This document shows positions 34,641-58,617 of a DNA stretch of 64,000 bases, piece after piece. The translations under genes were made by a program, and so were the position numbers. Positions within the stretch are counted from its first letter, which is position 1. Each line of letters starts with the position of its first letter. The notes under the pieces are model-generated. The model searched no databases. It had not been told where the DNA came from and worked only from the letters and a program-made list of their open reading frames with translations. Source of the DNA: Candidatus Doudnabacteria bacterium (lineage in GTDB: Bacteria > Patescibacteriota > Doudnabacteria > UBA920); the NCBI GenBank assembly GCA_031291995.1, contig JARLHZ010000025.1, forward strand, positions 25,174-89,173. The letters run 5' to 3'.

Positions 34641-34710
34641 ATAATTGATAATTTATAGTTGATAACAACCGTTCGCGTCCACAGAGTTATAAGTTATCAA
34701 TTATAAATTA
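34641..34710. repeat. Family-B palindromic element, empty hairpin (arms AATTTATAGTTGATAAC / GTTATCAATTATAAATT, about 27-nt loop)
   Basis: Read directly from the sequence. It shares the arm AATTTATAATTGATAAC with the copies at 38690, 39080 and 49613. Confidence 0.7.
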
Positions 34711-34861
34711 TGAGTTATTTCCACGATTTATTATTATAATCCATTTTACTTCCAGCGTCAATCGGGTTAAAATAGAATTATTGCAGACATTAATTGATTT
34801 TTGGATATTGGGGTATTTGCAAAACGGCGTTCAATCGATCAATATCCCAATCCAGCCGCCA

Positions 34862-35269
34862 ATGAAACAAACCTCGCTCGTAACTTTAAATGATATACCA
34901 AAATTTGCCAAACAGCTTGCCAATACGCTTAAAGGCGGGGAAATTTTGGCGCTTATCGGGCCGCTTGGAGCCGGGAAAACGACTTTTGCCAAAGCTCTTG
35001 GCAAAGAATTAAACATCAAGCATAAGATAACCAGTCCGACTTTTACGCTAATGCACTCTTTTGCGGCAAAGTTAAAGCAGGGCAAGCCGGCAACGCTTTA
35101 CCATCTGGACTTGTACCGCACAAAAAATTTCCGAGAAGCCAAGGCTTTGGGTTTAAACGAATTTTGGGGACAGCCCCGAACCGTCACTTTAATTGAATGG
35201 GCGGACAAGATCGGCCGGCACTTGCCCAAAAAAACCAAAAAAATAATATTTACCGGTCATGAAAAATAA
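34862..35269 (+). CDS. tsaE: tRNA threonylcarbamoyladenosine biosynthesis protein TsaE
   Basis: P-loop GPLGAGKTTFAKAL, then SPTFTLMHSF, then LYHLDLYR, the typical YjeE/TsaE order. Internal Met start chosen; the ORF track begins at 34781. Confidence 0.75.
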   Translation: MKQTSLVTLNDIPKFAKQLANTLKGGEILALIGPLGAGKTTFAKALGKELNIKHKITSPTFTLMHSFAAKLKQGKPATLYHLDLYRTKNFREAKALGLNEFWGQPRTVTLIEWADKIGRHLPKKTKKIIFTGHEK

Positions 35270-36512
35270 ACCCCTGTTAATGTTATCGGCGCTGGCGGCC
35301 TGTCTGATTTTCTTCCCGAAATTAGCTTGGGCCGACACCGGTTCGGCTGCCGTTTCTTATCCTCCCCAGCAGCAAAGCGCGCCGAACGGCGCGAGGCTGA
35401 ATTTGACTTTGGACGGGCAAAACTTTCCCATTTCCCAAGCCCAAGCCGATGACTGGTTCGGTCAACAAACCGTCACCCCCAGCCTCATGTTCAACCGGCC
35501 GCCACTGCCTCTCCGGGACATGCTAAAACAATCCCTGGGCATAGCGCCTCAAACGACGCAGGTGCTGCCCATTTACCACTACCGGCTCAGCGATATTTAT
35601 AATTTTTTGCGGGCGCTGTCCGACAAGGTTAACCGCCCTGCCGTTGAGCCCGTGTTCCAAATGGCGGACAACCGCGTTGCCACCTTTACACCTGCCCAAA
35701 CCGGCCTGGCGCTGGACATCTATCAGAACTCTCTCAACACCCTGACCGCGCTGGAACTCGGACAGCACAATTTAAACCTGGTTTCGTACCGGCAGGAGCC
35801 CAAAACCGCGCTGGCGCAAACTAACAACCTCGGCATTAGCGAACTTATCGGGGAGGGCGTTTCAAATTTTAAAGGCAGCCCCAATAACCGGCGCCACAAT
35901 ATTGCCGTAGGTTTGGAAAAATTTAAAGGACTTATAATTCCGCAGGGCGCGACTTTCAGCTTTGACGACAACCTCGGGCCGGTTACGGCCGATGCCGGAT
36001 TTTTACCGGAGCTGGTCATTGACAACGGCACTACCCTGCCGGAACTTGGCGGCGGCCTTTGCCAGGTTTCCACCACGACTTTCCGCGCCGCCATGGCGGC
36101 GGGATTGCCGATTACGGCGCGCCGGAACCACGCTTACGCCGTGACTTATTATTCCCCACAGGGAACCGATGCAACCATCTATCCCGGCTCGGCCGATTTA
36201 AAATTTGTAAATGATACGCCCGGAGCCATTCTAATCTGGCCTTACGAAAAAGACAGCAATACTTTGGTATTTGATTTTTACGGCACCAGCGACAACCGAA
36301 CGGTAATTTTACAGCAGCCGGTGGTGTACGATAAAAAAGCCGATCAAAGCATGAAGGCCACCTGGACGCGGATAGTCACCGCGGCCGACGGGAACCAAAG
36401 AACCGACGTATTCAAATCCACATACCAATCACCGGCGCTTTTCCATAAAACCGAAACTTTTGTTAGCGCCACGGGAAGCCAGTCTTCCGGACTAAAAATG
36501 CCAAAAACCTAA
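35259..36512 (+). CDS. VanW-family protein (secreted)
   Basis: 417 aa with an N-terminal signal/TM. VanW core GGGLCQVSTTTFRAAMAAGLPITARRNHAY. Confidence 0.75.
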   Translation: MKNKPLLMLSALAACLIFFPKLAWADTGSAAVSYPPQQQSAPNGARLNLTLDGQNFPISQAQADDWFGQQTVTPSLMFNRPPLPLRDMLKQSLGIAPQTTQVLPIYHYRLSDIYNFLRALSDKVNRPAVEPVFQMADNRVATFTPAQTGLALDIYQNSLNTLTALELGQHNLNLVSYRQEPKTALAQTNNLGISELIGEGVSNFKGSPNNRRHNIAVGLEKFKGLIIPQGATFSFDDNLGPVTADAGFLPELVIDNGTTLPELGGGLCQVSTTTFRAAMAAGLPITARRNHAYAVTYYSPQGTDATIYPGSADLKFVNDTPGAILIWPYEKDSNTLVFDFYGTSDNRTVILQQPVVYDKKADQSMKATWTRIVTAADGNQRTDVFKSTYQSPALFHKTETFVSATGSQSSGLKMPKT

Positions 36513-36530
36513 AGTACCGTTACGGCATCA

Positions 36531-36646
36531 AATATAGTAGAATATTAGTATTGCATGATGTTAATTGATAATGATGGATATTAGTTGATATTTGGGGATA
36601 TAAAACGAAACATTCAATATCCTAATATCTATTAATATCAACCCCT
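36531..36646. repeat. Family-C intergenic repeat (GGATATTAGTTGATATTTGGGGATAT...CCTAATATCTATTAATATCAACC)
   Basis: Strong similarity to the reverse complement of 51405-51500. Confidence 0.7.
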
Positions 36647-37696
36647 ATGATCCAATCCAACCAGGACAACGAGGCAGCCTCGGCCTTAAATGACGCTATG
36701 GCCGACGAAGAAGAAATAATCATAGAACAGACCCTGCGGCCGCAGGCGCTTTCGGAGTACGTGGGTCAGGACGGGATAAAAAATAATTTAAATATAATTA
36801 TCCAGGCCGCCAAACAGCGGGGCGAAATTTTGGAACACCTGATGTTTTACGGTCCGCCGGGCTTGGGCAAAACCACTTTGGCGTTTATTGTCGCCAAAGA
36901 AATGGGCGGTAATATTAAAGTTACCTCGGGTCCGGCCATTGAGCGGGCCGGCGATTTGGCCAGTCTGCTCACCAACCTCAGCGAAGGCGATGTTTTATTT
37001 ATAGACGAGATTCACCGTTTGAATAAAGCCGTGGAGGAAGTTTTATATCCGGCCATGGAAGACCACGTGCTGGATATTGTTTTGGGCAAAGGCCCGGGCG
37101 CGCGTTCCATACGCATGGAACTGCCAAAGTTTACCTTAATTGGCGCCACCACCAGGATCGGCCTGATTTCCTCTCCCCTGCGCGACCGCTTTGGCGCCAC
37201 TTATCGCCTGGAATATTACCCCGAAGAAGATTTGGAAAAAATTATCCGCCGCAGCAGCAAAATTTTAAACGCGCCTATCGACCGGGAAGCCGCGGCAGAG
37301 CTTTCCAAACGATCGCGCTTTACCCCGCGTATTGCCAACCGGCTGCTCAAGCGCGTGCGGGATTTTGCCCAAGTCCGCGGCCATGCTACAATAAATCAAA
37401 ATACGGCCGCGGAGGCTTTGAAACTGCTGGAAATAGACAGCCAGGGACTTGATAAAAACGACCGGAGGATATTGGAAACCCTCATCCATAAATTTTCCGG
37501 AAATCCCGTCGGTCTGTCCACACTGGCCGCGGCGACCGGGGAAGAAGAAGACACGATTACCGATCTTTACGAACCGTTTCTCATTCGCCTGGGTCTGATT
37601 GCCAAAACGCCCAAGGGCAGGCAGGCAACCGAAGCCGCGTACAGGCATTTGGATGTTACGCCGCCAATAAATAACCAACAAAAAACCTTATTGTAG
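36647..37696 (+). CDS. ruvB: Holliday junction branch-migration ATPase RuvB
   Basis: AAA+ Walker [10 protein letters not shown], Walker [10 protein letters not shown], sensor motifs and a C-terminal winged helix. Confidence 0.95.
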
Positions 37697-37783
37697 TTTA
37701 CGAAGTACGAACGAGAACGAACTTACGAAGAGTAAGTACCCGTTCGTTCGTAAGTTCGTAAAATTTCGTACTTAGTAAAATTA
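37694..37783. repeat. Family-A palindromic element (terminal arms TTACGAAGTACGAA / TTCGTACTT(A)GTAA), copy 1, immediately after the ruvB stop codon
   Basis: gtagtttacgaagtacgaacgagaacgaacttacgaag...cgttcgttcgtaagttcgtaaaatttcgtacttagtaaaatt. A second copy lies at 58542-58617. Confidence 0.75.
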
Positions 37784-37995
37784 TGAATCTTTCCAACCCC
37801 GCCAATCTCTTAATCGCCGGTATTTACTACGTATTAGTCGGCCTGGTCAGTTTGTTTTCACTGTTTGGCGTTTACATTCTCATTCGCTACGGGCGCTCGC
37901 TACCGCTGGCTTTTTCCATTGCCGTAGTTTACGCGCTGTTCTTTTTAAAAATTTTAATGGAAACTTCACAGACGCTGCACGCGCTGCTTAGTTAG
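37783..37995 (+). CDS. Small membrane protein (70 aa, two TM helices)
   Basis: Hydrophobic segments LLIAGIYYVLVGLVSLFSLFGVYILI and LAFSIAVVYALFFLKIL. No homology recognised. Confidence 0.3.
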   Translation: MNLSNPANLLIAGIYYVLVGLVSLFSLFGVYILIRYGRSLPLAFSIAVVYALFFLKILMETSQTLHALLS

Positions 37996-38139
37996 AGGGT
38001 TATGGTTGTAGGTTATAGAATGTGGTAGGGAAAATGGTTGTTGGGCTTAGGGCTATGAGCGCTAACGGCCTACTTTCCAAGGCCTATGACCAATCTACTT
38101 TCCATAACTTACAACTAATAACTAACTCCCCACCCAACT

Positions 38140-38688
38140 ATGTCCAAAAAACTTTTCCCCAGCCAGCTGGATGACGAACAAATTTTTCTTGTCGTACGCG
38201 AACACTGGGTCCACCTGACGCTAAAACTCATTGTCTGGGGATTCTTTGCTTTTTTGTTGGTGCTGTTTGAACAGGCGGGCCAAGCCAATATCCCCCAGCT
38301 GTTTTTGGGCACTTGGGGCGAAGTAACCCTGTTGTTTATTCAAATCTACACCTTAATGCTGATTATGGCGCTATTTTTGATTGTGGTTATATATTATTTA
38401 AACATTCAAATTATTACCAACCTCCGGGTTGTGGATGTCAGCCAGGAAGGACTGTTTTCCCACACGATTTCGGAACTTCATATAGATAAAATTGAAGACG
38501 CCACGAGCAAAACCAGCGGGCTGCTCGGCACAATTTTTAATTACGGCGATGTGTTCGTGCAAACCGCCGGCACGGTGGAACGGTTCGATTTTCACAACGT
38601 CCCCAACCCGGCGGCTATTGAAAAAATGGTATTGGATCTATACGAAAAAAATTCCAATTTCGCTAAAGACGCCGGGGAGAATAACTGA
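38140..38688 (+). CDS. Membrane protein with a bacterial PH (bPH_2/DUF304, YdbS/YdbT-like) domain
   Basis: Two N-terminal TM helices followed by a roughly 90-aa domain (VVDVSQEGLFSHTISELHIDKIEDATSKTSGLLGTIFNYGDVFVQTAG). Confidence 0.5.
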   Translation: MSKKLFPSQLDDEQIFLVVREHWVHLTLKLIVWGFFAFLLVLFEQAGQANIPQLFLGTWGEVTLLFIQIYTLMLIMALFLIVVIYYLNIQIITNLRVVDVSQEGLFSHTISELHIDKIEDATSKTSGLLGTIFNYGDVFVQTAGTVERFDFHNVPNPAAIEKMVLDLYEKNSNFAKDAGENN

Positions 38689-38723
38689 TAATTTATAATT
38701 GATAACTAATAACTAACCCCCTT

Positions 38724-39087
38724 ATGGCGTTTAGATTCCAATCTTGGCAAGTTTATAAGGATGCACGGACGTTCAGGAAAGAAATTAATGCCATACTCAA
38801 AACATATCCGCCAGCGGAACGATATGTACTTATAGACCAAATAAAGCGGGCGATGTTGTCGGTAATGCTACAAATTGCCGAAGGATCCGAACGAAAGACC
38901 GAAAAAGATAAAAATCTTTTCATAAACCGATCGTTAACCTCCCTTTTTCGAGATAGTCGCCTGTTTAGATTGTGCGGTTGATGACAAATACATCACCGAA
39001 GATCAATATAAAGACCTGACGCAAAAAGCCGAAAATATAGCCAAACAACTTAGAGGTTTTGAGAAGTATATCCGCAAAAGTTATTGA
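38724..39087 (+). pseudogene. Four-helix-bundle protein (23S rRNA intervening-sequence protein family, TIGR02436-like), frameshifted at the T5 run 38944-38948
   Basis: N-terminal MAFRFQSWQVYKDARTFRKEI...LQIAEGSERKTEKDKNLFINRSLTSL parallels the intact paralogue at 56650-57027. Removing one T restores ...EIVACLDCAVDDKYITEDQYKDLTQKAENIAKQLRGFEKYIRKSY*. It could be a homopolymer sequencing error. Confidence 0.6.
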
Positions 39088-39113
39088 TTATAAATTATTA
39101 ATTATAAGTTATC

Positions 39114-39551
39114 ATGACTACCATAGCAATCTCCGGAGGTTTTGACCCCATTCACATCGGCCATGTGGAAATGATGAAGGAAGCCAAACAGCTCGGTGAC
39201 AGGCTGGTGGTGATAGTGAATAACGACAACTGGCTGAAAAAGAAAAAAGGCTTTGCCTTTATGAGCGAAGCCGAGCGTAGATATATAGTCGAGGCCATCC
39301 GCTATGTTGATGAAGTTATTTTGACCGGCCACCCCCAAAACCCGACCGACATGTCAGTATGCGCGGAACTGGAAAAACTCAAACCCGATATTTTTGCCAA
39401 CGGCGGCGACCGCCACCCCGAAGGCGACCCGGTTCCCGAAGTCGAACTCTGCAAAAAACTCGGCATTCAAATGCTCTACAACATCGGCAAAAGCGGCAAA
39501 ATCCAAAGTTCCAGCGAACTGGTCAAGCGTGTCAGGGAAATAAAGAAATAA
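39114..39551 (+). CDS. Cytidylyl/adenylyl-transferase-like nucleotidyltransferase (TagD / RfaE-domain-II family)
   Basis: ISGGFDPIHIGHVEMM carries the H-x-G-H motif. 145 aa. Confidence 0.65.
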   Translation: MTTIAISGGFDPIHIGHVEMMKEAKQLGDRLVVIVNNDNWLKKKKGFAFMSEAERRYIVEAIRYVDEVILTGHPQNPTDMSVCAELEKLKPDIFANGGDRHPEGDPVPEVELCKKLGIQMLYNIGKSGKIQSSSELVKRVREIKK

Positions 39552-39556
39552 AGGTT

Positions 39557-39576
39557 CCCCGCCGCAAGCAGCGGGG
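39557..39576 (+). terminator. GC hairpin after the nucleotidyltransferase gene
   Basis: ccccgccgcaagcagcgggg. A second hairpin plus T-run lies at 39754-39790 (ccggtatggataagtgcgaatccataccg-acttttttg). Confidence 0.45.
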
Positions 39577-40087
39577 TATTACTGCAAGGAACAGCTGCAT
39601 CTTCGCGGCAAGCCGCTAGGTATTGAACCTTTCTTTCCGCCAAAGGCGGATCCGCCTCCGGCGGAAGTTCCCTGCCTGGCGGCAGGCAGGCCTCGGCTCG
39701 CTTGTCCATTGAAAGACAAAGGACAGACTCGCCTACGTCGCGAATAAATAGCGCCGGTATGGATAAGTGCGAATCCATACCGACTTTTTTGATGGCGTTC
39801 ATTTTAGGATCCAGCGAACGCCAATGACGGGGCGGAACGTTTGGCGGTCAACGAGCGGAGCAAACCACAGCTTAAATGCAGTACGCGGGATAGAAAGCTC
39901 CACTTTCGGTCCGTTGCACTTAAAGCGCTCGGAAAAGCTGCCTAGCCCTAAAGTTTTGCTCATCCGGTAATTAGTTTCCACCTTGTACCAAAAGCCGCTG
40001 CCACCGTCCTCAAACACCGCGAGGCCAGAAAGTTTGGCCTTGCCCACCCAAATAAGGACGAATTAAGCTATTGACATACAATATAAT

Positions 40088-40384
40088 ATGTCATATCATA
40101 TTAACATGAAGTCTTTTAATTGGAGTAATGATAAAAATCTTTGGCTGCAAGATATAAGAAAAGTGTGCTTTGAAGATGCTGTTAGAGAGATTACTGAACA
40201 TAGAGTACTCGATAACTTTAAACACCCAAACCAAAAAACATATCCTAATCAAAAAATTTTTATTATTGCGATAAACGGATATGCCTGCAGGGTTCCCTAC
40301 ATAGAAAGTGAAGAGACTATATTTTTCAAAACAATAATTCCAAGCAGACAAGCCACTAAAAAATATCTTGTCAATAAACCTTAA
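40088..40384 (+). CDS. brnT: BrnT-family (DUF497) ribonuclease toxin
   Basis: FNWSNDKNLWLQDIRKVCFEDAVREI...IFIIAINGYACRVPYIESEETIFFKTIIPSRQATKKY follows the BrnT pattern. Upstream TTGACA-17-TATCAT. Confidence 0.65.
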   Translation: MSYHINMKSFNWSNDKNLWLQDIRKVCFEDAVREITEHRVLDNFKHPNQKTYPNQKIFIIAINGYACRVPYIESEETIFFKTIIPSRQATKKYLVNKP

Positions 40385-40388
40385 AAAT

Positions 40389-40745
40389 ATGAACAATATA
40401 GATTTTGATAACCTACAATTAGACAAGGAAGAGAGGGAGATAGAAGAAGCCTTCGAAAAGGGCAGTGTTGAACGTGTTCTAAATTATGAGGAAGAAAAAG
40501 TAAAACTTGAAGCCGCGGCCCGCGCCACCTTGGAAAAAACCAAAAATATCAACATTCGTATTTCCCAAGGCGACTTATACAACATTAAGACTAAAGCTGC
40601 TGAGCAGGGCGTCCCCTACCAAACCCTTATTTCATCACTTATCCACCAATTCTCCAACAACCGGATTAACTATAACATTCTGCGCGAGCCCGGGAAGCCC
40701 TATCGCACATTTAATTCCAAGCCAACCAAAAAGAGCGGCGCCTAA
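40389..40745 (+). CDS. brnA: BrnA-type antitoxin
   Basis: C-terminal ISQGDLYNIKTKAAEQGVPYQTLISSLIHQF is the BrnA/COG3514 signature. Start chosen just after the brnT stop; the ORF track begins at 40368. Confidence 0.6.
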   Translation: MNNIDFDNLQLDKEEREIEEAFEKGSVERVLNYEEEKVKLEAAARATLEKTKNINIRISQGDLYNIKTKAAEQGVPYQTLISSLIHQFSNNRINYNILREPGKPYRTFNSKPTKKSGA

Positions 40746-43946: not shown

Positions 43947-45056
43947 CTATGCCTGTGTTTCACTTTCTTCTTCCACCACGGCCGGGGTCAAAGTTATATG
44001 CTGGGCCGGCATCTCCAAAGGATGGGTGGTGGTAATAAAAGTTTGAAATTTATTTTGCAGATATTTGAGCAGGAACGACCGGCGTGTTTCGTCCAGCTCC
44101 GATAAAACATCGTCAAGCAATAAAATCGGCTTTTCGTCTCCACGGCTTAAATGCTCCATTTCCAACACTTTTAAAGCCAAAACCTGGCCGCGCAGTTCGC
44201 CCCGGGAAGAAAAAGGCGGTAAAAAAAGACCATCACTTTTCAGGGAAAAATCATCGCGGTGCGGACCCACCAAAGAGGTCCCCACCAGAACTTCTTTTCC
44301 GGCCTTAGCCGCCAGCTGTAATCGAAAGTTTTCCATGACTTCTTCCAAAGAATTACCAGGCAGACTTTCCAGAACAACTTCTATCGGCCGGTGGAATCCC
44401 GAAATGGTCGTATAGACGTCGGCAATCCCGGTATTGAGAAAATTTACAAACTTTTTGCGCTCCTGGGTTATCAGGCTTCCCAACTCCACCAACTGTTCGT
44501 TCCAGGCGGGCAAGTCCTCTCCCTGGCTTTGACCGGTTTTTATTGCCTGGAGCAGCCGGTTTTTTTGGTATAAAACTTTCTTGTACCCAGCCAAAGCATC
44601 CAAATATTCAGGATTTTTTTGCGACAAAACCATGTTTAAATACTTTCTCCTGGCCTCCGGAGATTTTGTAAACATATCAACATCAGTCGGGTCAAAAATC
44701 ACCACACTCAGAAAACCTTGCGCCTCGCGGCGCTTCTTTTTTACGCCGTCAATTAAAAAATTGGCATAAATTTTGTCGCGCTTTTCCAAAAACACCGACA
44801 ATTCATGGTCCTGGCCCTCTTTCTCCACAACCATTTTCAGTTCCAGGCTGGAAGAATCTTTTAAAAAAATAAACTCGGTATCATCGCGAAATGATTTGAA
44901 CAATGAGGCAAAATACACCGATTCCAGCAAGTTGGTCTTTCCCACGGCGTTTGGGCCGGTTAACACCACAACATCGCTGTTTATCTCAATATTCAGGCTT
45001 GGATAATTACGAAAGTTTTTTATCTCCAGATTTTTTATTCTCATAGTTTTCCACAA
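43947..45056 (-). CDS. recF: DNA replication and repair protein RecF
   Basis: N-terminal Walker A GPNAVGKTNLLE and C-terminal signature/Walker B (ILLLDDVLSELD). Confidence 0.9.
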   Translation of the reverse strand: MWKTMRIKNLEIKNFRNYPSLNIEINSDVVVLTGPNAVGKTNLLESVYFASLFKSFRDDTEFIFLKDSSSLELKMVVEKEGQDHELSVFLEKRDKIYANFLIDGVKKKRREAQGFLSVVIFDPTDVDMFTKSPEARRKYLNMVLSQKNPEYLDALAGYKKVLYQKNRLLQAIKTGQSQGEDLPAWNEQLVELGSLITQERKKFVNFLNTGIADVYTTISGFHRPIEVVLESLPGNSLEEVMENFRLQLAAKAGKEVLVGTSLVGPHRDDFSLKSDGLFLPPFSSRGELRGQVLALKVLEMEHLSRGDEKPILLLDDVLSELDETRRSFLLKYLQNKFQTFITTTHPLEMPAQHITLTPAVVEEESETQA

Positions 45057-45123
45057 ATCACCAATACTGCAAATACGTACAAATTAATTTACAAAATTTG
45101 TTTTATTTGCGATTAATGAATAA

Positions 45124-46224
45124 TTAGCTTTTAATCGGCATAACCAAATACAAATAGTCCGCCTGTCCCTCGGGTAAAATTAAGCATGGTGAATTGTCAT
45201 CCACAATTTTAATTACCAAATTATCAGTATCAAGATTATTCAGGCAGTCAAGGACGTAACGATGATTAAAAATAATTTCCGCGCCTTCGCCATCCACAGA
45301 TGCCGCCAAACCTACCTCGCTTTTTCCCATTTCCGACGACTCCGCGGTTATTATTAATTTCTGATTTTTCCCGTCCAGGTTAAATTTAATGCTATTATTG
45401 CTCTGACAAAACACCGCGGCGGCCTTTAAAGCGGAAACCAGCGGCTGCTTGGGCAAAATTAGGGTTGTGGAAAATTTTTCGGGAATAATTTGTTTATAAT
45501 CCGGATACTGGCCGTCCACCAGACGACTGATAATTTGGGTATCGTTAAAATCTACGCCAACCTGATTACTATTTACCACAACAGCCACTTCCCCGGCATG
45601 AGCGCCGATAATCCGGGATATTTCCGCGGCGGTTTTTTGGGGAATAATCATGGATACATTACCAGAAAACCCGTTTTTTAAAACCAAACTTTTTTCCGCG
45701 AGCCGATACCGGTCAGTTGCGGCAATTTTCAATTTTTCATTCTCCAAGTTTACATATACCCCGCACAATTCGGGCTGGGTTTGGTTTGTGGAAGCCGCAA
45801 AAAATACCACGTCCAGGGAATTTTTAAATTCCTGGGAATCGATAGAAAACGGGGTTTTATTATCTAATTTTGGTATTAAAGGAAAGTCTTCCGGCGGCAG
45901 CGTTTTCAGATTTGTGTGGTAGTTCTCGTTATCAATAACAAGTTCCCCGCCTTCGGTTTTTATTGTTATATTTTGGTTCGGCATGTTATTTATAAGTTCA
46001 CCAAATGTCTTGGCCACGACCGTTGCTTCCCCATCCTCTTCCACCCTGCACCTTATTTGCGTGATAATCGCGACTTCCAGGTTGGTGGAATAAATTTTTA
46101 ACACCCCGTTTTCTGTTTTCATTAATATATTACTCAGGATCGGAAGGGTGTTTGATGAAGAAACAATCCTTCCCACAATTGCCAGTCCTGATTTTAGATT
46201 TTCTTGGGTGCAAACGATTCGCAT
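45124..46224 (-). CDS. dnaN: DNA polymerase III beta sliding clamp
   Basis: 366 aa, three-domain clamp (MRIVCTQENLKSGLAIVGRIV...). Position between dnaA and recF. Confidence 0.9.
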   Translation of the reverse strand: MRIVCTQENLKSGLAIVGRIVSSSNTLPILSNILMKTENGVLKIYSTNLEVAIITQIRCRVEEDGEATVVAKTFGELINNMPNQNITIKTEGGELVIDNENYHTNLKTLPPEDFPLIPKLDNKTPFSIDSQEFKNSLDVVFFAASTNQTQPELCGVYVNLENEKLKIAATDRYRLAEKSLVLKNGFSGNVSMIIPQKTAAEISRIIGAHAGEVAVVVNSNQVGVDFNDTQIISRLVDGQYPDYKQIIPEKFSTTLILPKQPLVSALKAAAVFCQSNNSIKFNLDGKNQKLIITAESSEMGKSEVGLAASVDGEGAEIIFNHRYVLDCLNNLDTDNLVIKIVDDNSPCLILPEGQADYLYLVMPIKS

Positions 46225-46401
46225 AAAGTGTTTATTAATTTTAAAACTTAATATGTAATTGTATTAATAAGGGCTGTGGTTTTGTGGATAGCTGTCTTTT
46301 TCCAGTAAAAGATATTGATTTAGCTGTTTTTTGTTGTTGATAATTCGGTGGAGTTTTGTGTGTAAGTATTTGTTTGTTACCGGTTGGAGATTGAAGTTGA
46401 T
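46225..46401. promoter_or_regulatory. dnaA-dnaN intergenic DnaA-box cluster (part of a bipartite oriC?)
   Basis: TTGTGGATAG at about 46281-46290 (8/9 to TGTGGATAA), TGTTGATAA at about 46333-46341, and CTGTGGTTT. AT-rich. Confidence 0.5.
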
Positions 46402-47754
46402 TTAAACGAACAGTTTATCCATAATTAAATCCACTTCTTGTTTAAAATTTTCCTTCTCTTTAATCAGGTTATCCACTTTTTCCACAGCGTGCATGACAGT
46501 GGTGTGGTCGCGGCCTCCAAAAAAGTCGCCTATAGATGGAAATGAATTTTCCAATTCTTTCCTGATTAGATACATGGCAACCTGCCGCGGTTTAACAAAC
46601 TCTTTTTTTCTGGATTGCTTTATAAGGTCTTCCATATTGACGTTATAAAATTCCGCAACCATCTCGGCGATTTTTTTTGCCGAAGTTATCCGTTTTTTAC
46701 TGCTAATTATGCTGGATAAGATAGTCTTGGCCTGGTCCAGGACAAGACCGCGGTTTTCCATTTGCTGGTAAACCGCCAGGCGGTTTAAAGCTCCCTCAAG
46801 TTCTCTGATGTTGGTGACAACATTTTCGGCAATATAAAACAGAATATCTTCGGTAAGATTAACACCTTTTTTTTCCATTTTCGTACGGAGAATTGCCATG
46901 CGTGTTTCCAAATCCGGCGCCTGAATGTCGGCAACCATACCCCACTCAAAGCGAGAGATTAGACGCTGCTCGATGGCCGGAATCTCTTTTGGCGGCCGGT
47001 CGGAGGTTATGATTATTTGTTTGCCTCTTTCCCGTAATTCGTTAAATGTGTGGAAAAATTCCTCTTGGAAGCCTTCTTTGCCTGCCATAAACTGGATGTC
47101 GTCAATCAGTAACGCATCGGTTCCCCGATATTCTTTTTTGAATTCTTCCACCCGTTTTTGCGCGATGGCGTTGACGTAGTCGTTGGCGAACTTTTCGCTG
47201 GTAACGTATAAAAGTTTGGTTTTGGGGTTATTTTGAACTAAGCGGTGCCCGGCGGCTTGCATGAGGTGGGTTTTGCCCAGACCGACACCGCCGTAAATAA
47301 ACAGCGGGTTGTATTGCGTACCGGGATTTTTTGCAATGCTCTGGCTGGCGGCGTGGGCCAATTCGTTATTTTTTCCGATAATGAACGTTTCAAAAGTGTA
47401 TTTGGGGTTTAAGCTCGTCTGGCTGGCAGCCGGTCCGGATTCTTTGTGGGAATGTCCCGGGAAGTCGGAGGAGATTTTTTGAACCGGTTTTTGGGCGGAG
47501 GGAGCTGACGAACTTCCTAATTGGTATTTAATCTCTTTAATTTCAGGCGCCAGGCTTTTCAGAGCCTTGAGTATTTCCTGGTGATATTTGGCGGCAATCC
47601 AATCGCGGTTAAAAGTGCTGGGAACCCCGACAATAATGTAATCACTTCCTCGTTCGAGAATGTGGGTATTTTTAAACCAAGTATTGAAATTAGCGCGACT
47701 TAAAGATACTTCCATGCTACCCAAGATGGCTTGCCAGAGTTGTTGGTTATTCAT
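46402..47754 (-). CDS. dnaA: Chromosomal replication initiator DnaA
   Basis: AAA+ Walker [14 protein letters not shown], Walker B LLIDDIQF, and the C-terminal DNA-binding helix-turn-helix ([34 protein letters not shown]). Internal Met start chosen; the ORF track goes to 47808. Confidence 0.95.
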
Positions 47755-48038
47755 AAGTACCGAAATGAGAGTAACTTCACGCGGATAAACGCGGTAAGAC
47801 AACCTCATAAATTTTGTTTCTGCGAAGTCCCGCGTGAGGTTCCGCGCTCTTCAGCGATAGTGGATTTATTCTAACAGGGGGTTATCAACATGTAAACACT
47901 TGTAAACAGCGCATGTTTGACACTTAAAGCGCTAAGGCTGTTTATATCCTGTGGACAGGTTGTGTTTTTTTAAAAATTCAAATTATTTCCGGATTTGCCG
48001 TTGACTAATGGGCCGCTTTTCTTTATAATTACCGTTGT
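47755..48038. promoter_or_regulatory. Putative oriC and divergent promoter region between dnaA and rpmH
   Basis: DnaA-box-like TTATCAACA (47882-47890), AGTGGATTT (47859-47867) and the palindrome CCTGTGGACAGG containing TGTGGACAG. Direct repeats TGTAAACA x2. AT-rich stretch tttttttaaaaattcaaattatttcc (candidate DUE). Consensus promoter TTGACT-17-TATAAT (48001-48029) for rpmH. Confidence 0.6.
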
Positions 48039-48173
48039 ATGAAAAGAACTTATCAGCCAAAAGTAAAACGCCGCAAAGTCCGACATGGATTTTTAAAGCG
48101 TATGCAAACCAGGACCGGCAGGGCAGTTTTGGCGCGCCGACGCGCAAAAGGCCGCAAAAAACTCAGCGTATAG
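48039..48173 (+). CDS. rpmH: 50S ribosomal protein L34
   Basis: [44 protein letters not shown], read directly. Missed by the ORF track because it is shorter than the track's cut-off. Confidence 0.95.
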
Positions 48174-48193
48174 GCTTTTGGCTCAGCCACCTT

Positions 48194-48520
48194 ATGCTAA
48201 AAAAAGTTAACCGTCTGGCCAAAGCTAAGGATATTTTCGCAACCCTTGGCAGAGGGCGGACTTTTTTTAACCCTTATTTTAGCGTCAAATTTTTGCGGCG
48301 CTCCGGAGCCAGCCGTTTTACGGTTGTTGTTTCGACGAAGGTTTACAAAAGCGCGGTTAAGCGGAATCGGCTAAAGCGAGTTGCTCGCGAATTTTTGCGC
48401 CGCCGGCTTACAGAGCTTCCCGCGGGCGACTATTTAATTTCGGCCAAGCCGAAAATAAGAGGCCTGCCGGAAAACCAAAGACTGGGGTGGTTTTCAGATT
48501 TAATATCTAAAATCCGATGA
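48194..48520 (+). CDS. rnpA: Ribonuclease P protein component
   Basis: FSVKFLRRSGASRFTVVVSTKVYKSAVKRNRLKRVAREFLR is the RnpA signature. Located directly after rpmH. Confidence 0.85.
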   Translation: MLKKVNRLAKAKDIFATLGRGRTFFNPYFSVKFLRRSGASRFTVVVSTKVYKSAVKRNRLKRVAREFLRRRLTELPAGDYLISAKPKIRGLPENQRLGWFSDLISKIR

Positions 48521-48780
48521 TTAAATTTATTTCTGAATTGCCGAAAAAAATAGTGTTAAGCCTGATAGGCTTGTATCAGGTAACTCTTTCGCCTGACCAT
48601 GGTTTTTTCCGCGCGCGGTTTCCCCATGGTTACTGTCGTTTTTATCCGTCTTGCAGCGACTATGCCAGGCAATCAATTATTAATTTTGGTTTAATTAAAG
48701 GCGGTTATTTGGGAGCCAAAAGAGTTTTACGTTGTCACCCCTGGGCCGAACCCAAGTTTGACCCGGTTCCCCGAACATAG
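48517..48780 (+). CDS. yidD: Membrane protein insertion efficiency factor YidD
   Basis: LIGLYQVTLSP...CRFYPSCSDYA...HPW(G)EP is the YidD signature. Overlaps the rnpA stop. Confidence 0.9.
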   Translation: MIKFISELPKKIVLSLIGLYQVTLSPDHGFFRARFPHGYCRFYPSCSDYARQSIINFGLIKGGYLGAKRVLRCHPWAEPKFDPVPRT

Positions 48781-48893
48781 TTCTTGGCTACAGAAAATAA
48801 GATAGGAATATGTTTTAGGGCTTAGGCAGCCCAAGACCTAAAACCATTTTCCCTGCTACCTTCTATAATTTACAATCATAGCCTCTCCAACCC

Positions 48894-49613
48894 ATGACGT
48901 TCATTTCCGTTTACAACGCAATAATCTATCACCCCCTTCTGAACCTGTTGGTGTTTTTTTACAATATCGTTCCAGGCCACGACATTGGCGTGGTTATTAT
49001 TTTAATTACCATTTTTATCCGGCTGTTATTGGCTCCGAGTTTTGGCAAATCCATCCGGAGCCAAAAAGCCATGAATGATTTACAGCCCAAATTGAATGCC
49101 GTGCGGGAAAAATATAAGGACGATAAAGAAGGCCAGGCCAAAGCCATGATGGAACTGTATAAAGAAAATAAAATAAACCCTTTTTCTTCCTGCTTGCCCC
49201 TGTTAATCCAGTTGCCGATTTTGATCGGCCTGTACCAGGCATTCCGCGTGGCGTTAAATCCCGCCATTGGCATGGCCGAGCGGTTGAGCGGGCTTTACCC
49301 GTTTGTCTATCGTCCTGAATCCATTAGTCCTTTTTTCTTTAAGGTTATCAATTTATCCCAACCGAGCGCGGTGTTGGCAATTATGGCCGGCTTGGCCCAG
49401 TTTTGGCAGTCTAAAATCATGATGCCCCAGGGACCGGGACAGGATACCACCATGAAAGCCATGAGCATGCAAACTACTTATGTATTGCCTGTAATCAGCA
49501 TGTTTATCGCCTGGCGTCTGCCTGCCGGATTGCCGCTTTATTGGGTGGTTACCACTTTATTCGCCGTGGGCCAACAGTATTATGTTATGAGAAAACCGAA
49601 AGTTAATCAATAA
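48894..49613 (+). CDS. yidC: YidC/Oxa1-family membrane protein insertase (short form)
   Basis: 239 aa with five TM helices. The PLLIQLPILIGLYQA and GLPLYWVV motifs are typical of the YidC core. Confidence 0.85.
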   Translation: MTFISVYNAIIYHPLLNLLVFFYNIVPGHDIGVVIILITIFIRLLLAPSFGKSIRSQKAMNDLQPKLNAVREKYKDDKEGQAKAMMELYKENKINPFSSCLPLLIQLPILIGLYQAFRVALNPAIGMAERLSGLYPFVYRPESISPFFFKVINLSQPSAVLAIMAGLAQFWQSKIMMPQGPGQDTTMKAMSMQTTYVLPVISMFIAWRLPAGLPLYWVVTTLFAVGQQYYVMRKPKVNQ

Positions 49614-49666
49614 TTTATAATTGATAACTTATAACACCGCTAGGTTACTTGTTATCAATTATAAAG
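49613..49666. repeat. Family-B palindromic element, empty hairpin (arms AATTTATAATTGATAAC / GTTATCAATTATAAAG, 21-nt loop containing GCTAGG), immediately after the yidC stop
   Basis: Read directly. The arm is identical to the one at 38690-38706. Confidence 0.75.
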
Positions 49667-49682
49667 TATAAATTCCAAATCC

Positions 49683-50153
49683 ATGACCGACTACAACAAG
49701 ATTGAAATTGCCAAAAACGTTATTGCCGAACTGCTGGAAAAATGCGGCGTGCCGGCCTCCGTGGAATTTGAAGAAAGCATCACAAAAGGGTTGGTGTTTA
49801 ACATTGCAACCACGGAATCGTATTTGCTGATTGGCCGCCAGGGCATCACTTTGCATTCCCTTCAAATTTTGTCCCAGGCGCTGGTCGCGAAAAAACTGAA
49901 TTCGCAGGAGCCGTTTTGGTTTACTTTGGATGTTGATGATTATAAAAGAAAACGCGAATGGCTGCTTAAGGAAACGGCCAAAGCCGCGGCAGACAAAGCC
50001 AAACTTACCGGCCGCGCCCAAGCCTTAGAGCCCATGCCCAACTACGAACGCCGCCTCATTCACGCCTACCTCCAGGAACACTGCCCCGAAGTTTACAGCG
50101 ACAGCATAGGCAATGAGCCTTACCGGAAAGTGGTTATAAGATTGAAGAGATAA
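49683..50153 (+). CDS. jag: Jag/KhpB-type RNA-binding protein (KH plus R3H domains)
   Basis: The C-terminal R3H motif LEPMPNYERRLIHAYLQEH. Position after yidC. Confidence 0.8.
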   Translation: MTDYNKIEIAKNVIAELLEKCGVPASVEFEESITKGLVFNIATTESYLLIGRQGITLHSLQILSQALVAKKLNSQEPFWFTLDVDDYKRKREWLLKETAKAAADKAKLTGRAQALEPMPNYERRLIHAYLQEHCPEVYSDSIGNEPYRKVVIRLKR

Positions 50154-50156
50154 ATA

Positions 50157-50190
50157 AATCCTCAGATCATTACGATCTGAGGATTTTAAA
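50157..50190. terminator. Bidirectional hairpin terminator (aatcctcagatc-attac-gatctgaggatt + T)
   Basis: Read directly. Lies between the convergent jag and O-antigen-ligase-like genes. Confidence 0.7.
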
Positions 50191-50213
50191 TTCAACGGAA
50201 GTGATCTGTATAT

Positions 50214-51404: not shown

Positions 51405-51500
51405 AGATATTAATAGATATTGGTTGATATTAATAGATATTGGTTGATATTAGGCATTACAAATAATATCCTAATATCCCAACATCAACTAATATCCATA
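51405..51500. repeat. Family-C intergenic repeat with an internal 20-bp tandem duplication (ATATTAATAGATATTGGTTG x2)
   Basis: Its reverse complement aligns with 36560-36646 (tatggatattagttgatgttgggatatt... / cctaatatcaaccaatatctattaatatcaacc). Confidence 0.7.
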
Positions 51501-51504
51501 TTAA

Positions 51505-54363: not shown

Positions 54364-54509
54364 AATTCGCTTAAGTAAAAAGTTTTTGGGTGTGGAAACC
54401 GGAACGGTTTTTAGTTATAAGGGTAAGGGTATTTGCCTTATATTGTTAGACTTAAAACCATACTGGTATCTATACCTAATAACACATAACTAATAAATTA
54501 TAGCTGTTT

Positions 54510-55850: not shown

Positions 55851-55897
55851 ATATTCAGCGTGAAATCCGCGTAGCTATCCGCGTTTAAATCCGCGGT

Positions 55898-55993
55898 TTA
55901 GACCTTGCCTTCATCGTCATCATCTTCGTCTTCTTCCGTGCTTTCCGGCACACCGCCGTCCGGCATTGTTGTGTCGTCATCGTCTGGTAGCAT
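55898..55993 (-). CDS. Candidate small acidic protein (31 aa: MLPDDDDTTMPDGGVPESTEEDEDDDDEGKV)
   Basis: GGAG lies 7 nt upstream of the ATG. Not in the ORF track because it is short. Compositionally extreme and could be spurious. Confidence 0.2.
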   Translation of the reverse strand: MLPDDDDTTMPDGGVPESTEEDEDDDDEGKV

Positions 55994-56093
55994 TGTAATC
56001 TCCTTTTGGTCTTAATTTTTAACCCTGTTTGCAGGGTATGCAAATTATATCAGGGCTTTTTTGGGGAGTCCAGAAAACATATCCACCGCCCAC

Positions 56094-56615
56094 TTATGCC
56101 TTTAACCGGAGGTCTTTTTGATATTTATGGCCGGCGCACATTGCAATGGCTACCGCGTCCGCCGCGTCGTCCGGCTTGGGTGGGTTTTTGAGTTTAAAAG
56201 TTTTTTGAACAATGTACTGAACCTGTTTTTTTTCCGCTTTGCCGTAACCGCAAATAAAGCTCTTGACCTGAAGCGGGGTAAATTCCAGAATCGGAACTTT
56301 ATGCTGTTGGCAAACCAGCAGGACGGCTCCCCTGGCCTGGGAAACGGTCATAACCGTTTTTTGGTTGGTGGTAAAAAACAATTTTTCAATCCCCACGGCA
56401 TCCGGCCTGAATTTTTTTAGGAGTTGGATTATGTCATCGGCCAAAATGTTTAAGCGTTCCGCGTCTGTCAGATTTTTGTCCGTCGTAATTACGCCAAAAT
56501 CCACCAGCTCGGGCTGGTTTTTTCCGCCGGAGGCGGACCCGCCTCCGGCGGGAGTCATTTCTATTACTCCGAATCCGGTAGTTGCCGTACCCGGGTCGAT
56601 GCCTAGTATAATCAT
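56094..56615 (-). CDS. ruvC: Crossover junction endodeoxyribonuclease RuvC
   Basis: MIILGIDPGTATTGFGVIE plus the RNase H-like catalytic residues (DPG..., ...E..., ...HAD-type motif AADAVAIAMC). Confidence 0.9.
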   Translation of the reverse strand: MIILGIDPGTATTGFGVIEMTPAGGGSASGGKNQPELVDFGVITTDKNLTDAERLNILADDIIQLLKKFRPDAVGIEKLFFTTNQKTVMTVSQARGAVLLVCQQHKVPILEFTPLQVKSFICGYGKAEKKQVQYIVQKTFKLKNPPKPDDAADAVAIAMCAGHKYQKDLRLKA

Positions 56616-56634
56616 AAGTTAACAATAACTATTA

Positions 56635-57052
56635 CTATAACGATAACTGCTAGGATTCGGGGTGTTCAATAGCATTCTTGAGATGGTTTTCTAAACCCCG
56701 GAGTTGCTTAGCTAAATTTTCGATTTGGTTGTAGAAGTATTTATATTTATCTTCATCAATATAAACATCATCAAGCGCGCAGTCAAAGCAGGCCATAACT
56801 TCATCGAGCGAGGTTAGGGCCCGATTTATAAAAACAATCTTGTTATTTTCTGTCCTGCGGTTAGAACCTTCGGCAATCGCTAACACAACTGAGAGAGCCG
56901 CCCTATCGGTTTGACTTATAAGAATATATTTTTCGTCCGATGGCCAGGTTTTGGTTGTTTGTTTAACCTCTTTTCTAAAAGTTCTCGCGTCTTTATAAAC
57001 CTGCCAACCATGGAATTTAAAAGACATAGGGAAGTTATGGTTATCGTTATAG
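56635..57052. repeat. Perfect 13-bp inverted repeats (CTATAACGATAAC / GTTATCGTTATAG) bracketing the four-helix-bundle gene, an IVS-like cassette
   Basis: Arms at 56635-56647 and 57040-57052, each 2-12 nt from the ORF ends. Confidence 0.75.
56650..57027 (-). CDS. Four-helix-bundle protein (23S rRNA intervening-sequence protein family)
   Basis: 125 aa (MSFKFHGWQVYKDARTFRKEV...LAIAEGSNRRTENNKIVFINRALTSLDEVMACFDCALDDVYIDEDKY...). Paralogue of 38724-39087. Confidence 0.7.
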   Translation of the reverse strand: MSFKFHGWQVYKDARTFRKEVKQTTKTWPSDEKYILISQTDRAALSVVLAIAEGSNRRTENNKIVFINRALTSLDEVMACFDCALDDVYIDEDKYKYFYNQIENLAKQLRGLENHLKNAIEHPES

Positions 57053-57056
57053 TCAG

Positions 57057-57773
57057 CTAAAGGTTTGCAGAAGTGTGTACCGCTATAACGTCCTCGTCAT
57101 TTTCCAGGGCCGCGAATAGAGTGTCAACTTTAGGCTTCTGGTCTTCGGTTAAGTCCGTTCCCTGCGACGATTCCTTAATAATTTCCGCCTGGGCGATTTT
57201 GGCTCCGGCTTTTTCCAGAGCAGTTTTAATTTTGTGCAAATCCTGGGGCAGTGTGTAAACCTCCAAACCTTCTTCGGACTCCCGGACATCGTCCGCTCCG
57301 GCGTCTATGGCGGCCATTTCGATATCCGAAATATTTTTATCGCGCTCGACTAAAATTTGTCCCTTGGTGCTAAATTGCCACGCTACGCTCCCCTGGGCTC
57401 CTATACTGCCGCCGTGTTCGGAAAAAATTTTGCGGACGTTGTTAAAAGTGCGGTTGCTGTTGTCCGTGGCCGCTTCCACCAAAAATGCCGTGCCGAACGG
57501 CCCGTAGCCTTCGTAGGCGACTTCTTTGACCGCGGCCGCCCCCGCTCCCAGCGCGTTTTTTATGGCCCGTTCCACGTTTTCGTTGGGCATGCCCTGGGCT
57601 TTGGCGCTGTCGATTATCGTTTTTAATTTAAAATTGGCCGACGGGTCGCCGCTGCTTCCTTCTTTTACGGCTATGGAGATTTTTTTGGAGTACTTGGAAA
57701 ACAGCAGTCCCTTTTTTTGGTCAAGGACGCCTTTGGTTCGTTTAATTTGCGACCACTTGGAATGTCCGGACAT
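57057..57773 (-). CDS. yebC: YebC/PmpR-family transcriptional regulator
   Basis: MSGHSKWSQIKRTKG... is the near-universal YebC N-terminus. Confidence 0.9.
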   Translation of the reverse strand: MSGHSKWSQIKRTKGVLDQKKGLLFSKYSKKISIAVKEGSSGDPSANFKLKTIIDSAKAQGMPNENVERAIKNALGAGAAAVKEVAYEGYGPFGTAFLVEAATDNSNRTFNNVRKIFSEHGGSIGAQGSVAWQFSTKGQILVERDKNISDIEMAAIDAGADDVRESEEGLEVYTLPQDLHKIKTALEKAGAKIAQAEIIKESSQGTDLTEDQKPKVDTLFAALENDEDVIAVHTSANL

Positions 57774-57818
57774 AGGTTCATTGACAAAATTAAATAAAAT
57801 TGACCAGAATTGACATAA

Positions 57819-58538
57819 TTATTTAAATGAGATCATTACTGTAAATTCCCCTTTTATGGAGGGTTTGTCTTTGAGTGCGTCAGATACTTGGGTTGGGGTA
57901 CCACGGATGAATTCTTCATGCATTTTAGTCAGCTCGCGGGCAATAACGACCTGTGAAGAAGGGAACGCGTTGCTTATGTAGCTGAGCGTCTTAAGAATTC
58001 TTTCGGGGGACTCATAAAAAATCGCGGTGGCTTCGGCATTGGCCGCAAACTGTAAGGCCTCGACCGTTTTGCTGACGGTTTTTTGTAAAAAACCCAAAAA
58101 CAAAAACTTGTCAGTAGGCAGGCCGGAGGCAGACAGGGCGGCAATGGCGGCATTCGGCCCCGGGAATGGGATGACTTGCACGTTTTCTTTTACGCATTCG
58201 CGAACCAATCTAAATCCGGGATCGCTAATCCCGGGAGTTCCGGCGTCGGTAATCAGCGCGCCGTCTTGTTTGCTTAAGCGGCGGGCGAGTTCTTTGACAA
58301 TCTGCTGTTCGTTATGTTCCGCGAATTGGACGACTTCTTTTTTTGCTGTCATCCCAACTGAGTCATTAGATGCAATTACCGAAGCGGTTCGCACGGAAAG
58401 TCCGTCTATATATTGCAGCAGCCGCCGCGAATAGCCCGGATTTTCCGCAATTACAAAATCGCACCGCTTGAGCGTCTCAATCGCCCGCAGTGTAATATCC
58501 CCCATGTTTCCGATTGGTGTTGCGACTATGTAAAGCAT
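57819..58538 (-). CDS. rsmI: 16S rRNA (cytidine1402-2'-O)-methyltransferase RsmI
   Basis: MLYIVATPIGNMGDITLRAIETLKRCDFVIAE is the tetrapyrrole-methylase-fold RsmI N-terminus. Confidence 0.85.
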   Translation of the reverse strand: MLYIVATPIGNMGDITLRAIETLKRCDFVIAENPGYSRRLLQYIDGLSVRTASVIASNDSVGMTAKKEVVQFAEHNEQQIVKELARRLSKQDGALITDAGTPGISDPGFRLVRECVKENVQVIPFPGPNAAIAALSASGLPTDKFLFLGFLQKTVSKTVEALQFAANAEATAIFYESPERILKTLSYISNAFPSSQVVIARELTKMHEEFIRGTPTQVSDALKDKPSIKGEFTVMISFK

Positions 58539-58541
58539 ATC

Positions 58542-58617
58542 GTAGTTTACGAAGTACGAATTTTTACGAACATACGAAGGGTTCGTAAGTTCGTAACCGT
58601 TCGTACTTCGTAAAATT
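58542..58617. repeat. Family-A palindromic element, copy 2 (perfect 14-bp arms TTACGAAGTACGAA / TTCGTACTTCGTAA)
   Basis: gtagtttacgaagtacgaatttttacgaacatacgaagggttcgtaagttcgtaaccgttcgtacttcgtaaaattt. It lies 4 nt upstream of the rsmI start on the opposite strand. Confidence 0.75.

Follow-up and report, generated by a model that had tools for sequence, protein, structure and literature searches.

The stretch analysed here, 64,000 nucleotides of a Candidatus Doudnabacteria bacterium (assembly GCA_031291995.1, contig JARLHZ010000025.1, positions 25,174 to 89,173; hereafter the window), contains palindromic repeats in the short gaps between its protein-coding genes and thereby raises the question of what kind of element these repeats are. 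A preliminary description of the locus had recognised three families (A, B and C), compared them with repetitive extragenic palindromes (REPs) and miniature inverted-repeat transposable elements (MITEs), and suggested that they might act as terminators. The analysis presented here led us to another assignment. The repeats are probably copies of one kind of small cassette, prone to gain and loss and mostly without cargo, that resembles the intervening sequences (IVSs) known from bacterial 23S rRNA genes.

All three families proved to be real, at the coordinates listed in Table 1, and their motif counts lie far above chance. With up to two mismatches the Family A arm TTACGAAGTACGAA was matched four times, against 0.43 times in dinucleotide shuffles, and the matches form two inverted pairs (37698-37711 with 37765-37778, and 58547-58560 with 58600-58613). 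The 17-mer of Family B (up to three mismatches) was found 16 times, against 0.56 expected, in clusters at 34641-34719, 38680-38716, 39078-39112 and 49605-49674, and the core of Family C four times, against 0.38 expected. Three families is nevertheless an undercount, since a scan of all intergenic gaps revealed Families D, E and F as well, so that the set in the window amounts to at least six families with about 12 copies. A 19-nt repeat with two matches (0.13 expected) had been interpreted as a leader shared by two genes. It is not a separate element: one copy is the 3' arm of D1, and the other lies in the upstream arm of a gene-bearing cassette described below. The copy at 38112 has CAACTAA at its start and not TAACTAA.

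The elements have a common form, namely hairpins of 70-140 bp whose arms of 25-50 nt are degenerate head-to-tail arrays of a 7-, 8- or 10-nt word. According to Tandem Repeats Finder, the period is 7 for Families B (word ATAAYTN), D (GGTTRTN/ATAACYN) and E (TCAAATN), 8 for Family A (GTTCGTAA) and 10 or 20 for Family C (GATATTNNNN); the 3' end of Family F has ATAAC-type words. The loops of Families A and B differ between copies. A complementary stretch of 26/26 links B2 to B1, and C2 is indeed the inverse of C1, with an exact internal tandem duplication of 20 nt (51406-51452; period 20, 2.3 copies, 100% match). Folded as single strands, the copies A1 to C2 of the three families first described were more stable than their shuffled counterparts, with z-scores of -5.4 (A1), -7.7 (A2), -7.0 (B1), -5.5 (B2), -2.0 (C1) and -4.5 (C2). 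The values for the further copies were -3.0 (D1), -0.8 (D2), -5.1 (E) and -3.8 (F), so that most copies fall between -3 and -8, and the partial copy D2 alone makes a poor hairpin.

The position of the elements in short intergenic gaps, abutting stop codons, was likewise borne out, as the table shows for B2 and C1. A1 starts right after the ruvB stop codon and fills the gap up to the start of a gene for a 70-aa membrane protein. A2 is located between the stop codon of the minus-strand gene at 58617-58928 and the TP_methylase (rsmI-like) gene on the same strand (57819-58538), 7 nt from the start of the latter. In co-directional gaps the median distance from hairpin to stop or start codon is 9 nt on either side. 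The cassettes occupy tiny gaps of compact operons, where they often provide the stop codon of the upstream gene and end about 10 nt or less before the next start. The window has word hairpins only between co-directional or divergent genes, within conserved operons (yebC-ruvC and yidD-yidC-jag, for example); their absence from convergent gaps was not clearly upheld across 30 loci. Both D2 and B2 lie inside the rnpA-jag operon. This operon belongs to the neighbourhood of the replication origin (43947-50153), where the minus-strand genes recF, dnaN and dnaA are followed by rnpA, yidD, yidC and jag in plus orientation and where the cumulative GC skew is lowest (at about 44-46 kb).

Two copies carry a gene. 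The split Family B element had been described as a pair of arms, and the arms are real, but the gene between them had been overlooked: the arms at 38680-38716 and 39078-39112 enclose a frameshifted PF05635 gene, which codes for a 23S rRNA intervening-sequence or four-helix-bundle protein. The downstream arm overlaps the last PF05635 codons and ends 1 nt before the ATG of the cytidylyltransferase gene. A single frameshift was located near a T5 run at about 38945 (38940-38950), and the nearest relative has an intact PF05635 gene of 120 aa at the same position; the frameshifted copy is either a recent pseudogene or an assembly error. The second cassette is bracketed by inverted ATAAC-word arms (CTATAACGATAAC ... 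GTTATCGTTATAG), and its gene product is 59% identical to that of the repaired first copy. It matches TIGR02436 with 77.8 bits, and its nearest solved structure is 2GSC. A cargo open reading frame (ORF) is accordingly present in 2 of about 12 elements (38724-39087 and 56650-57027). We rejected an identification of the cargo as Avd, the accessory protein of diversity-generating retroelements, because the score of 23.9 bits compares with an NCBIfam equivalog cut-off of 80, the protein matches TIGR02436 instead, and the neighbouring genes are yebC and ruvC. The defence library PADLOC gave no meaningful match and PHROGs a weak Avd-like match only, while viral contigs contained neither the Family A or B pattern nor a match to the PF05635 profile.

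The same bracketing was found around PF05635 genes elsewhere. In a metagenome sample of 80 loci encoding relatives of the window's PF05635 protein, 70 PF05635 genes were scored for local complementarity between the 80 nt upstream and the 80 nt downstream of the gene. The median inverted-repeat score was 33, compared with 14 for 287 other genes of the same loci, and 80% of the 70 genes exceeded the 95th percentile of these controls (p = 2e-32), with arm periods of 7 or 8. When controls were limited to genes with intergenic DNA on both sides, the scores were 30 and 13, and 78% remained above the 95th percentile (p = 3e-17). The strongest outliers among the controls were themselves cassettes, carrying further PF05635 genes or GxxExxY genes (TIGR04256, PF13366, PD-(D/E)XK-like); the latter are bracketed by TACGAAT, TACGGAT or TACAGAT words, three of them in Doudnabacteria-like loci. 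The arm words at PF05635 genes vary by lineage (ATAACTN, GAAGAACN, TTGACAAT, GAGCTNA, ACTGACA, AAAAACN). Both neighbours are co-oriented for 45 of 55 PF05635 genes, with gaps of about 50 nt, and the arms have a polarity, the upstream arm being A-rich in 86% and the downstream arm T-rich in 70%.

Cyanobacterial plasmids (Nostoc, Calothrix, Aulosira, Picosynechococcus) also contain such cassettes. Tandem word arrays were seen on at least one flank of 7/7 PF05635 genes and clearly complementary arrays on both sides of at least five of the seven, in the pairs GGGAGTA/TACTCCC, GGGTGTA/TACACCC, GGGAACA/TGTTCCC and GGGGAAA/TTTCCCC. On a plasmid of Picosynechococcus sp. PCC 7003 (L165; NZ_CP016476.1, 126179-127269), inverted arrays of the GAGGAGATAA type flank a four-helix-bundle gene that lies within a type III-B CRISPR operon, between cas10 and cmr3. 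In contigs L116 (Ga0078972_1001453, 1900-5900) and L115 several small-gene cassettes follow one another (GxxExxY, PF05635, GxxExxY and others), every one with bracketing arrays of its own (TTGACAAT, AATCCGCGT, GCGGATCT), in an integron-like layout with no obvious integrase in the stretch examined. A search of openly readable full texts, with subscription-only literature outside its reach, found no paper that ties PF05635 or GxxExxY genes to flanking word arrays. A different arrangement was observed in L120 (4887-5387), where 40-nt inverted repeats, each itself palindromic (ACTATGATACATCAATGTTATGTAACATTGATGTATCATAGT), flank a YerC/TrpR-family gene; these are unlike the word arrays.

A comparison of the same loci in related genomes showed how variable the elements are. 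The gene order DHH-tsaE-vanW-ruvB-TM-bPH-cytidylyltransferase, in which TM is the membrane-protein gene, is kept in 29 related species, and four of its co-directional hairpin sites were compared (vanW/ruvB, ruvB/TM, TM/bPH and bPH/cytidylyltransferase). Deep relatives have mostly spacers of about 0-40 nt there, and a few gaps with inserted genes or a terminator. The clade nearest to the window often has hairpins of 70-150 nt at these four sites, and the word at one site differs by species: downstream of ruvB it is TACGAA in the window, CGAAAxx in L002, TCAAAT in L005 and L009, ATAAYT in L006, TAATTAG in L010 and ATGACAAAA in L011 and L012. The larger vanW/ruvB inserts of other species were considered as PF05635 cassettes and turned out to be unrelated genes, namely toxin-antitoxin, lipoprotein and 324-326 aa protein genes. 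Members of Families B, C and E were also found in other species, partly at non-orthologous sites; Family E, for example, shares 90% identity over 42 nt with L009, and it occupies the gap downstream of ruvB in L005 and L009. In the nearest relative (RuvB 93% identical), a comparison resting on gene coordinates gave gaps of 32 and 28 nt in place of the window's 144 nt (D1) and 113 nt (D2), the flanking proteins being of equal length in both genomes. The cassettes are gained and lost between related species, and they spread as sequence families within the genome and between species.

Table 1. Word-array elements and PF05635 cassettes of the window (a point in the strand column marks elements listed without a strand; MFE, minimum free energy)
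Feature	Position	Strand	Description
A1	37697-37779	.	arms 37697-37729 and 37747-37779, TACGAA(N)/GTTCGTAA words; MFE -32.1
A2	58546-58614	.	arms 58546-58578 and 58582-58614, 88% complementary; MFE -38.2
B1	34641-34719	.	hairpin of ATAAYTN heptamers; divergent gap between DHH-family gene (-) and tsaE (+)
B2	49605-49674	.	left arm over yidC stop codon; right arm ends 8 nt before start of jag (KH/R3H)
C1	36560-36646	+	hairpin of GATATTNNNN decamers; vanW/ruvB gap, ends about 5 nt before ruvB ATG
C2	51402-51500	-	reverse complement of C1; between O-antigen-ligase-like and PBP1-type genes
D1	37998-38131	+	134-nt hairpin, 5' arm GGTTATGGTTGTAGGTTATAG, 3' arm CCATAACTTACAACTAATAACTAAC; MFE -48.4
D2	48830-48883	-	partial, 80% identical to reverse complement of 37998-38051; yidD-yidC gap
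E	1716-1819	.	104-nt hairpin of TCAAAT(N) heptamers
F	54374-54491	.	118-nt hairpin, about 44 bp; divergent gap between PBP1-type gene and tyrS; MFE -41
Cassette 1, upstream arm	38680-38716	+	A-rich, 5.3 tandem AATAACT words; contains TGA stop of bPH_2 gene
PF05635 gene, copy 1	38724-39087	+	profile match with E 9.6e-17
Cassette 1, downstream arm	39078-39112	+	T-rich, ATTATAA/GTTAT words
PF05635 cassette 2	56616-57056	-	between yebC and ruvC
Cassette 2, upstream arm	57056-57028	-	CTGACTATAACGATAACCATAACTTCCCT
Cassette 2, downstream arm	56649-56616	-	CAGTTATCGTTATAGTAATAGTTATTGTTAACTT
PF05635 gene, copy 2	57027-56650	-	intact, 125 aa

The cassette proposed here consists of two inverted degenerate arrays of a 7-10 nt word around a short loop or a small gene, and the same shell carries either PF05635 genes (in the window and elsewhere) or GxxExxY genes for PD-(D/E)XK-like proteins (elsewhere). 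Upon transcription of the host operon, the two arrays are expected to zip into an A/U-rich duplex of 25-50 bp. RNase III would probably cut this duplex, as it does in IVSs, which are tolerated through excision of the insert from the transcript (Warrier et al., 2016; PMC4990558). The insert would thereby be removed and the flanking cistrons separated, which would make an insertion into an operon nearly harmless. We regard RNase III processing of the hairpins as a reasonable analogy. The construction from words might let the arms pair in several registers, so that slippage by whole words would be tolerated. As candidates for an action in trans on the word arrays we consider both kinds of cargo protein, the pentamer-forming four-helix bundle, which is a relative of Avd, and the PD-(D/E)XK-like protein.

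Several points speak against this assignment. Mismatches within the arms, read on the sense strand, comprise 67 G.T and 68 A.C in cassettes, and 15 and 9, respectively, in gene-less hairpins. As there is no excess of G.T over A.C, nothing points to selection for RNA pairing; the even numbers fit arms that were made or homogenised at the DNA level and then decayed neutrally. No recombinase or transposase was found linked to the elements, and an action of the cargo proteins on the arrays is a candidate role. A permissive tblastn search of the loops of gene-less hairpins returned noise only and no recognisable PF05635 remnant, so that descent from cargo-bearing copies is deduced from the shared words, and for Families A, C and E the window offers no counterpart with a gene. 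No target-site duplication was visible at the A, B or C copies, nor could an exact empty-site junction be defined from the available genomes, which include no near-identical pair of filled and empty sites. Finally, the PF05635 genes scored elsewhere were picked by similarity to the window's protein and not at random across the family, and the census of the source genome covers the 64-kb window plus about 9 kb of further sequence, in which no additional copies were seen.

Among the alternatives, the one that survives best, although we consider it unlikely, is that the hairpins are regulatory RNA structures selected by the host for processing, stability or translational coupling, and kept for their benefit to the flanking genes in an organism without Shine-Dalgarno (SD) sequences. 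The tight apposition of hairpins to stop and start codons would suit such a role. Moreover, just 5 of the 59 starts in the window have an SD-like motif within 20 nt, and with so few of them a leader structure could matter for initiation. Some hairpins are also shared between species: the DHH/tsaE gap of L002 has an ATAAC-word hairpin (7288-7373) similar to B1, and the 3' half of the TM/bPH hairpin is nearly identical in L002 and L010. Yet the same gaps are empty in many relatives with the same genes, the word at one site changes from species to species, one sequence family stands beside unrelated genes, and the arms are without the bias for G.U over A.C.

It is also improbable, in our view, that the tandem word and not the hairpin is the functional unit, the arrays being multivalent binding sites for a protein such as the pentameric four-helix-bundle protein, ribosomal protein S1 or a cold-shock protein (Csp), with the inversion as a secondary feature. 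The strict period of 7 or 8 nt around PF05635 genes and the intrinsic polarity of their arms would be in line with this idea. In addition, rotation and variation of TAACTGA give the ATAACTN words, one exact TAACTGA is present at 38683-38689, and direct TAACTGA arrays a few nucleotides from starts lacking a ribosome-binding site (RBS) have been reported in Beggiatoaceae, Cyanobacteria and Bacteroidetes and proposed as protein-binding sites upstream of such SD-less starts (MacGregor, 2015; PMC4679880). A simple binding-site model needs no pairing, however, and both in the window and at PF05635 genes the arrays are nearly always paired with their complement. Since the words differ wholly between families of one genome (TACGAA, ATAACT, GATATT, TCAAAT), a single host factor is unlikely.

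The comparison with REPs and MITEs made in the preliminary description holds in so far as the elements are dispersed, multi-copy, palindromic, intergenic, and present or absent at syntenic gaps. That they actually are REPs mobilised by a REP-associated tyrosine transposase (RAYT), or that they arose as MITEs from an insertion sequence resident in the genome, we consider very improbable. Both Family A copies have GTAG immediately 5' of the palindrome on the plus strand, which in A1 includes the ruvB stop codon, and this recalls the GTAG head of REPs (PMC3733652). But B, C and D have no GTAG or CGTC head, the elements measure 70-140 bp with tandem-word arms of 25-50 nt instead of being palindromes of 20-40 bp, and neither the scanned genes of the window (those from 26 kb onward) nor the gene calls of L001 and L166 include a Y1/RAYT gene. 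The only insertion sequence of the window, IS5-like (32162-33383), has neither terminal inverted repeats nor any repeat resembling A-D; it encodes DUF4096 and DDE_Tnp_1 and is split into two or three ORFs. The variable loops of A and B and the lack of a visible target duplication are further arguments against a REP or MITE origin.

Least probable of all is a role as intrinsic terminators or attenuators with an unusual, A+T-rich structure. Stable hairpins do lie directly 3' of stop codons, but the terminator scan detected none of the elements as a G+C-rich stem with T-run. Canonical terminators of that form exist elsewhere in the window, for the most part in convergent gaps (5257-5315, 33384-33458, 50154-50213), whereas the word hairpins keep to co-directional or divergent gaps within conserved operons. 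A promoter scan gave weak promoter-like hexamers only, in some arms. TIGR arrays (TIGR-Tas) were considered and dismissed, since the words have 7-10 nt as opposed to units of about 36 nt, the copies are scattered singly, and the scanned neighbours include no Nop-domain gene. The window matched no Rfam family at gathering score, and relaxed thresholds gave chance-level hairpin matches only.

If the elements are IVS-like cassettes, the tiny, streamlined genomes of the Candidate Phyla Radiation would tolerate actively turning-over selfish hairpins in essential operons. This would have practical effects on gene calling, as stop codons are supplied by the elements, on operon models, and on assembly, as contigs break in hairpins; short-read assemblies of the same organism break inside D1, Logan contig L001 ending at 38051. 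As a broader and more tentative proposal, rather doubtful at present, PF05635 and GxxExxY (PF13366) genes in inverted 7-8 nt arrays might form one widespread, undescribed class of mobile cassettes in Patescibacteria, Cyanobacteria and probably other phyla. Such a class would unite rRNA intervening sequences, the short tandemly repeated repetitive (STRR) heptamers of cyanobacteria, TAACTGA repeats and the window's gene-less hairpins, and its multimeric cargo protein would recognise its own array for copying or processing. The proposal touches puzzles that are decades old, namely the rRNA intervening sequences, the ORFs for S23p or four-helix-bundle proteins, the large paralogous families annotated as 'four helix bundle' and 'GxxExxY', and the STRR and TAACTGA heptamers. 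If one architecture is shared, array binding by the cargo, excision by RNase III and movement of copies become directly testable.

Apart from the word arrays, the window contains a separate G+C-rich palindrome family (CCGCCnGAGGCGGAnCCGCCTCnGGCGG) at 39631-39668, at 56518-56555 inside ruvC and, in weaker form, at 10937-10974, with a further copy in the bPH/cytidylyltransferase gap of L009. The ruvC copy is in frame and encodes an extra ...PAGGGSASGG... segment, reminiscent of the Rickettsia palindromic elements inserted in genes, and Logan contig L166 ends at this copy. Two structured G+C-rich intergenic stretches, 2713-3135 (423 nt, GC 0.52, MFE -150) and 39552-39798 (247 nt, GC 0.57, MFE -106), may be unrecognised RNAs. 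For the former Rfam gave chance-level relaxed matches only, and for the latter none at gathering score or in a relaxed scan of 34500-39900. No tRNA, tmRNA or rRNA match was found in the window. Several gene starts are preceded by a short C-run (CCCCT/CCCTT) instead of an SD-like motif. Two genes in the region 19253-30100 are giant, with products of 2221 aa and, with PKD/TIG domains, 1353 aa; internal nucleotide repeats of about 270 nt lie at 29381-29809. Toxin-antitoxin genes, comprising a PhdYeFM antitoxin with a PIN toxin and a CopG-type antitoxin, lie at 59276-59987 and 40368-40745, and a promoter-like palindrome (TTGACATACAAT...TATGTCA) is found upstream of both regions (40071-40108 and 59961-59998).

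Compared with known systems, the cassettes resemble those of integrons in that imperfect palindromes of 60-140 bp bracket small genes without promoters, and in that several cassettes can follow one another, as in L116. In integrons, however, each cassette has at one end an attC site that forms a hairpin by itself, whereas here the sequence upstream of the gene pairs with the one downstream, and no IntI was seen next to the window's cassettes. REPs, bacterial interspersed mosaic elements (BIMEs) and bacterial MITEs such as Correia, RUP and Nezha are short, palindromic, intergenic and multi-copy. With them the window's elements share insertion polymorphism between relatives, the supply of stop codons and sites inside operons. 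They differ in conserving word arrays and not a defined head or internal sequence, in being able to enclose a gene that is not a transposase, and in having no visible RAYT or parent insertion sequence.

The STRR heptamer repeats of cyanobacteria, reportedly described by Mazel and colleagues in 1990, are closer. Like these and the TAACTGA repeats, the arms of B, D and E are intergenic tandem heptamers, often a few nucleotides upstream of SD-less starts, whose forward word carries stop codons; the words of B and D (ATAACTN) resemble TAACTGA, and typical heptamer arrays flank the PF05635 genes of cyanobacteria. The differences are the period of 8 in A and of 10 or 20 in C, and the pairing of the window's arrays with their complement as hairpins or gene brackets, compared with 1 inverted set among 170 TAACTGA repeat sets in a Beggiatoaceae genome (MacGregor, 2015; PMC4679880).

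The closest counterpart is the IVS of 23S rRNA genes with its S23p/PF05635 ORF, known from Leptospira, Coxiella and Xanthomonas, which has a terminal stem (of 28 bp in Coxiella) and may contain an S23p ORF, is removed from the transcript by RNase III, and is distributed sporadically, suggesting horizontal spread (Warrier et al., 2016; PMC4990558). The window's elements likewise have complementary termini that would form a long stem around the insert, as do 78-80% of the 70 other PF05635 genes, and an optional S23p/PF05635 ORF in the loop. Unlike IVSs, all copies in the window lie between protein-coding genes and not in helix 25 or 45 of 23S rRNA, their arms are tandem arrays of 7-10 nt words, most of them are without an ORF, and for them RNase III excision is proposed by analogy. 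The IVS is the previously described case of this cassette architecture, and on the best reading the elements of the window are to be filed as a variant of the IVS and heptamer-repeat kind, not as REPs, MITEs or terminators.

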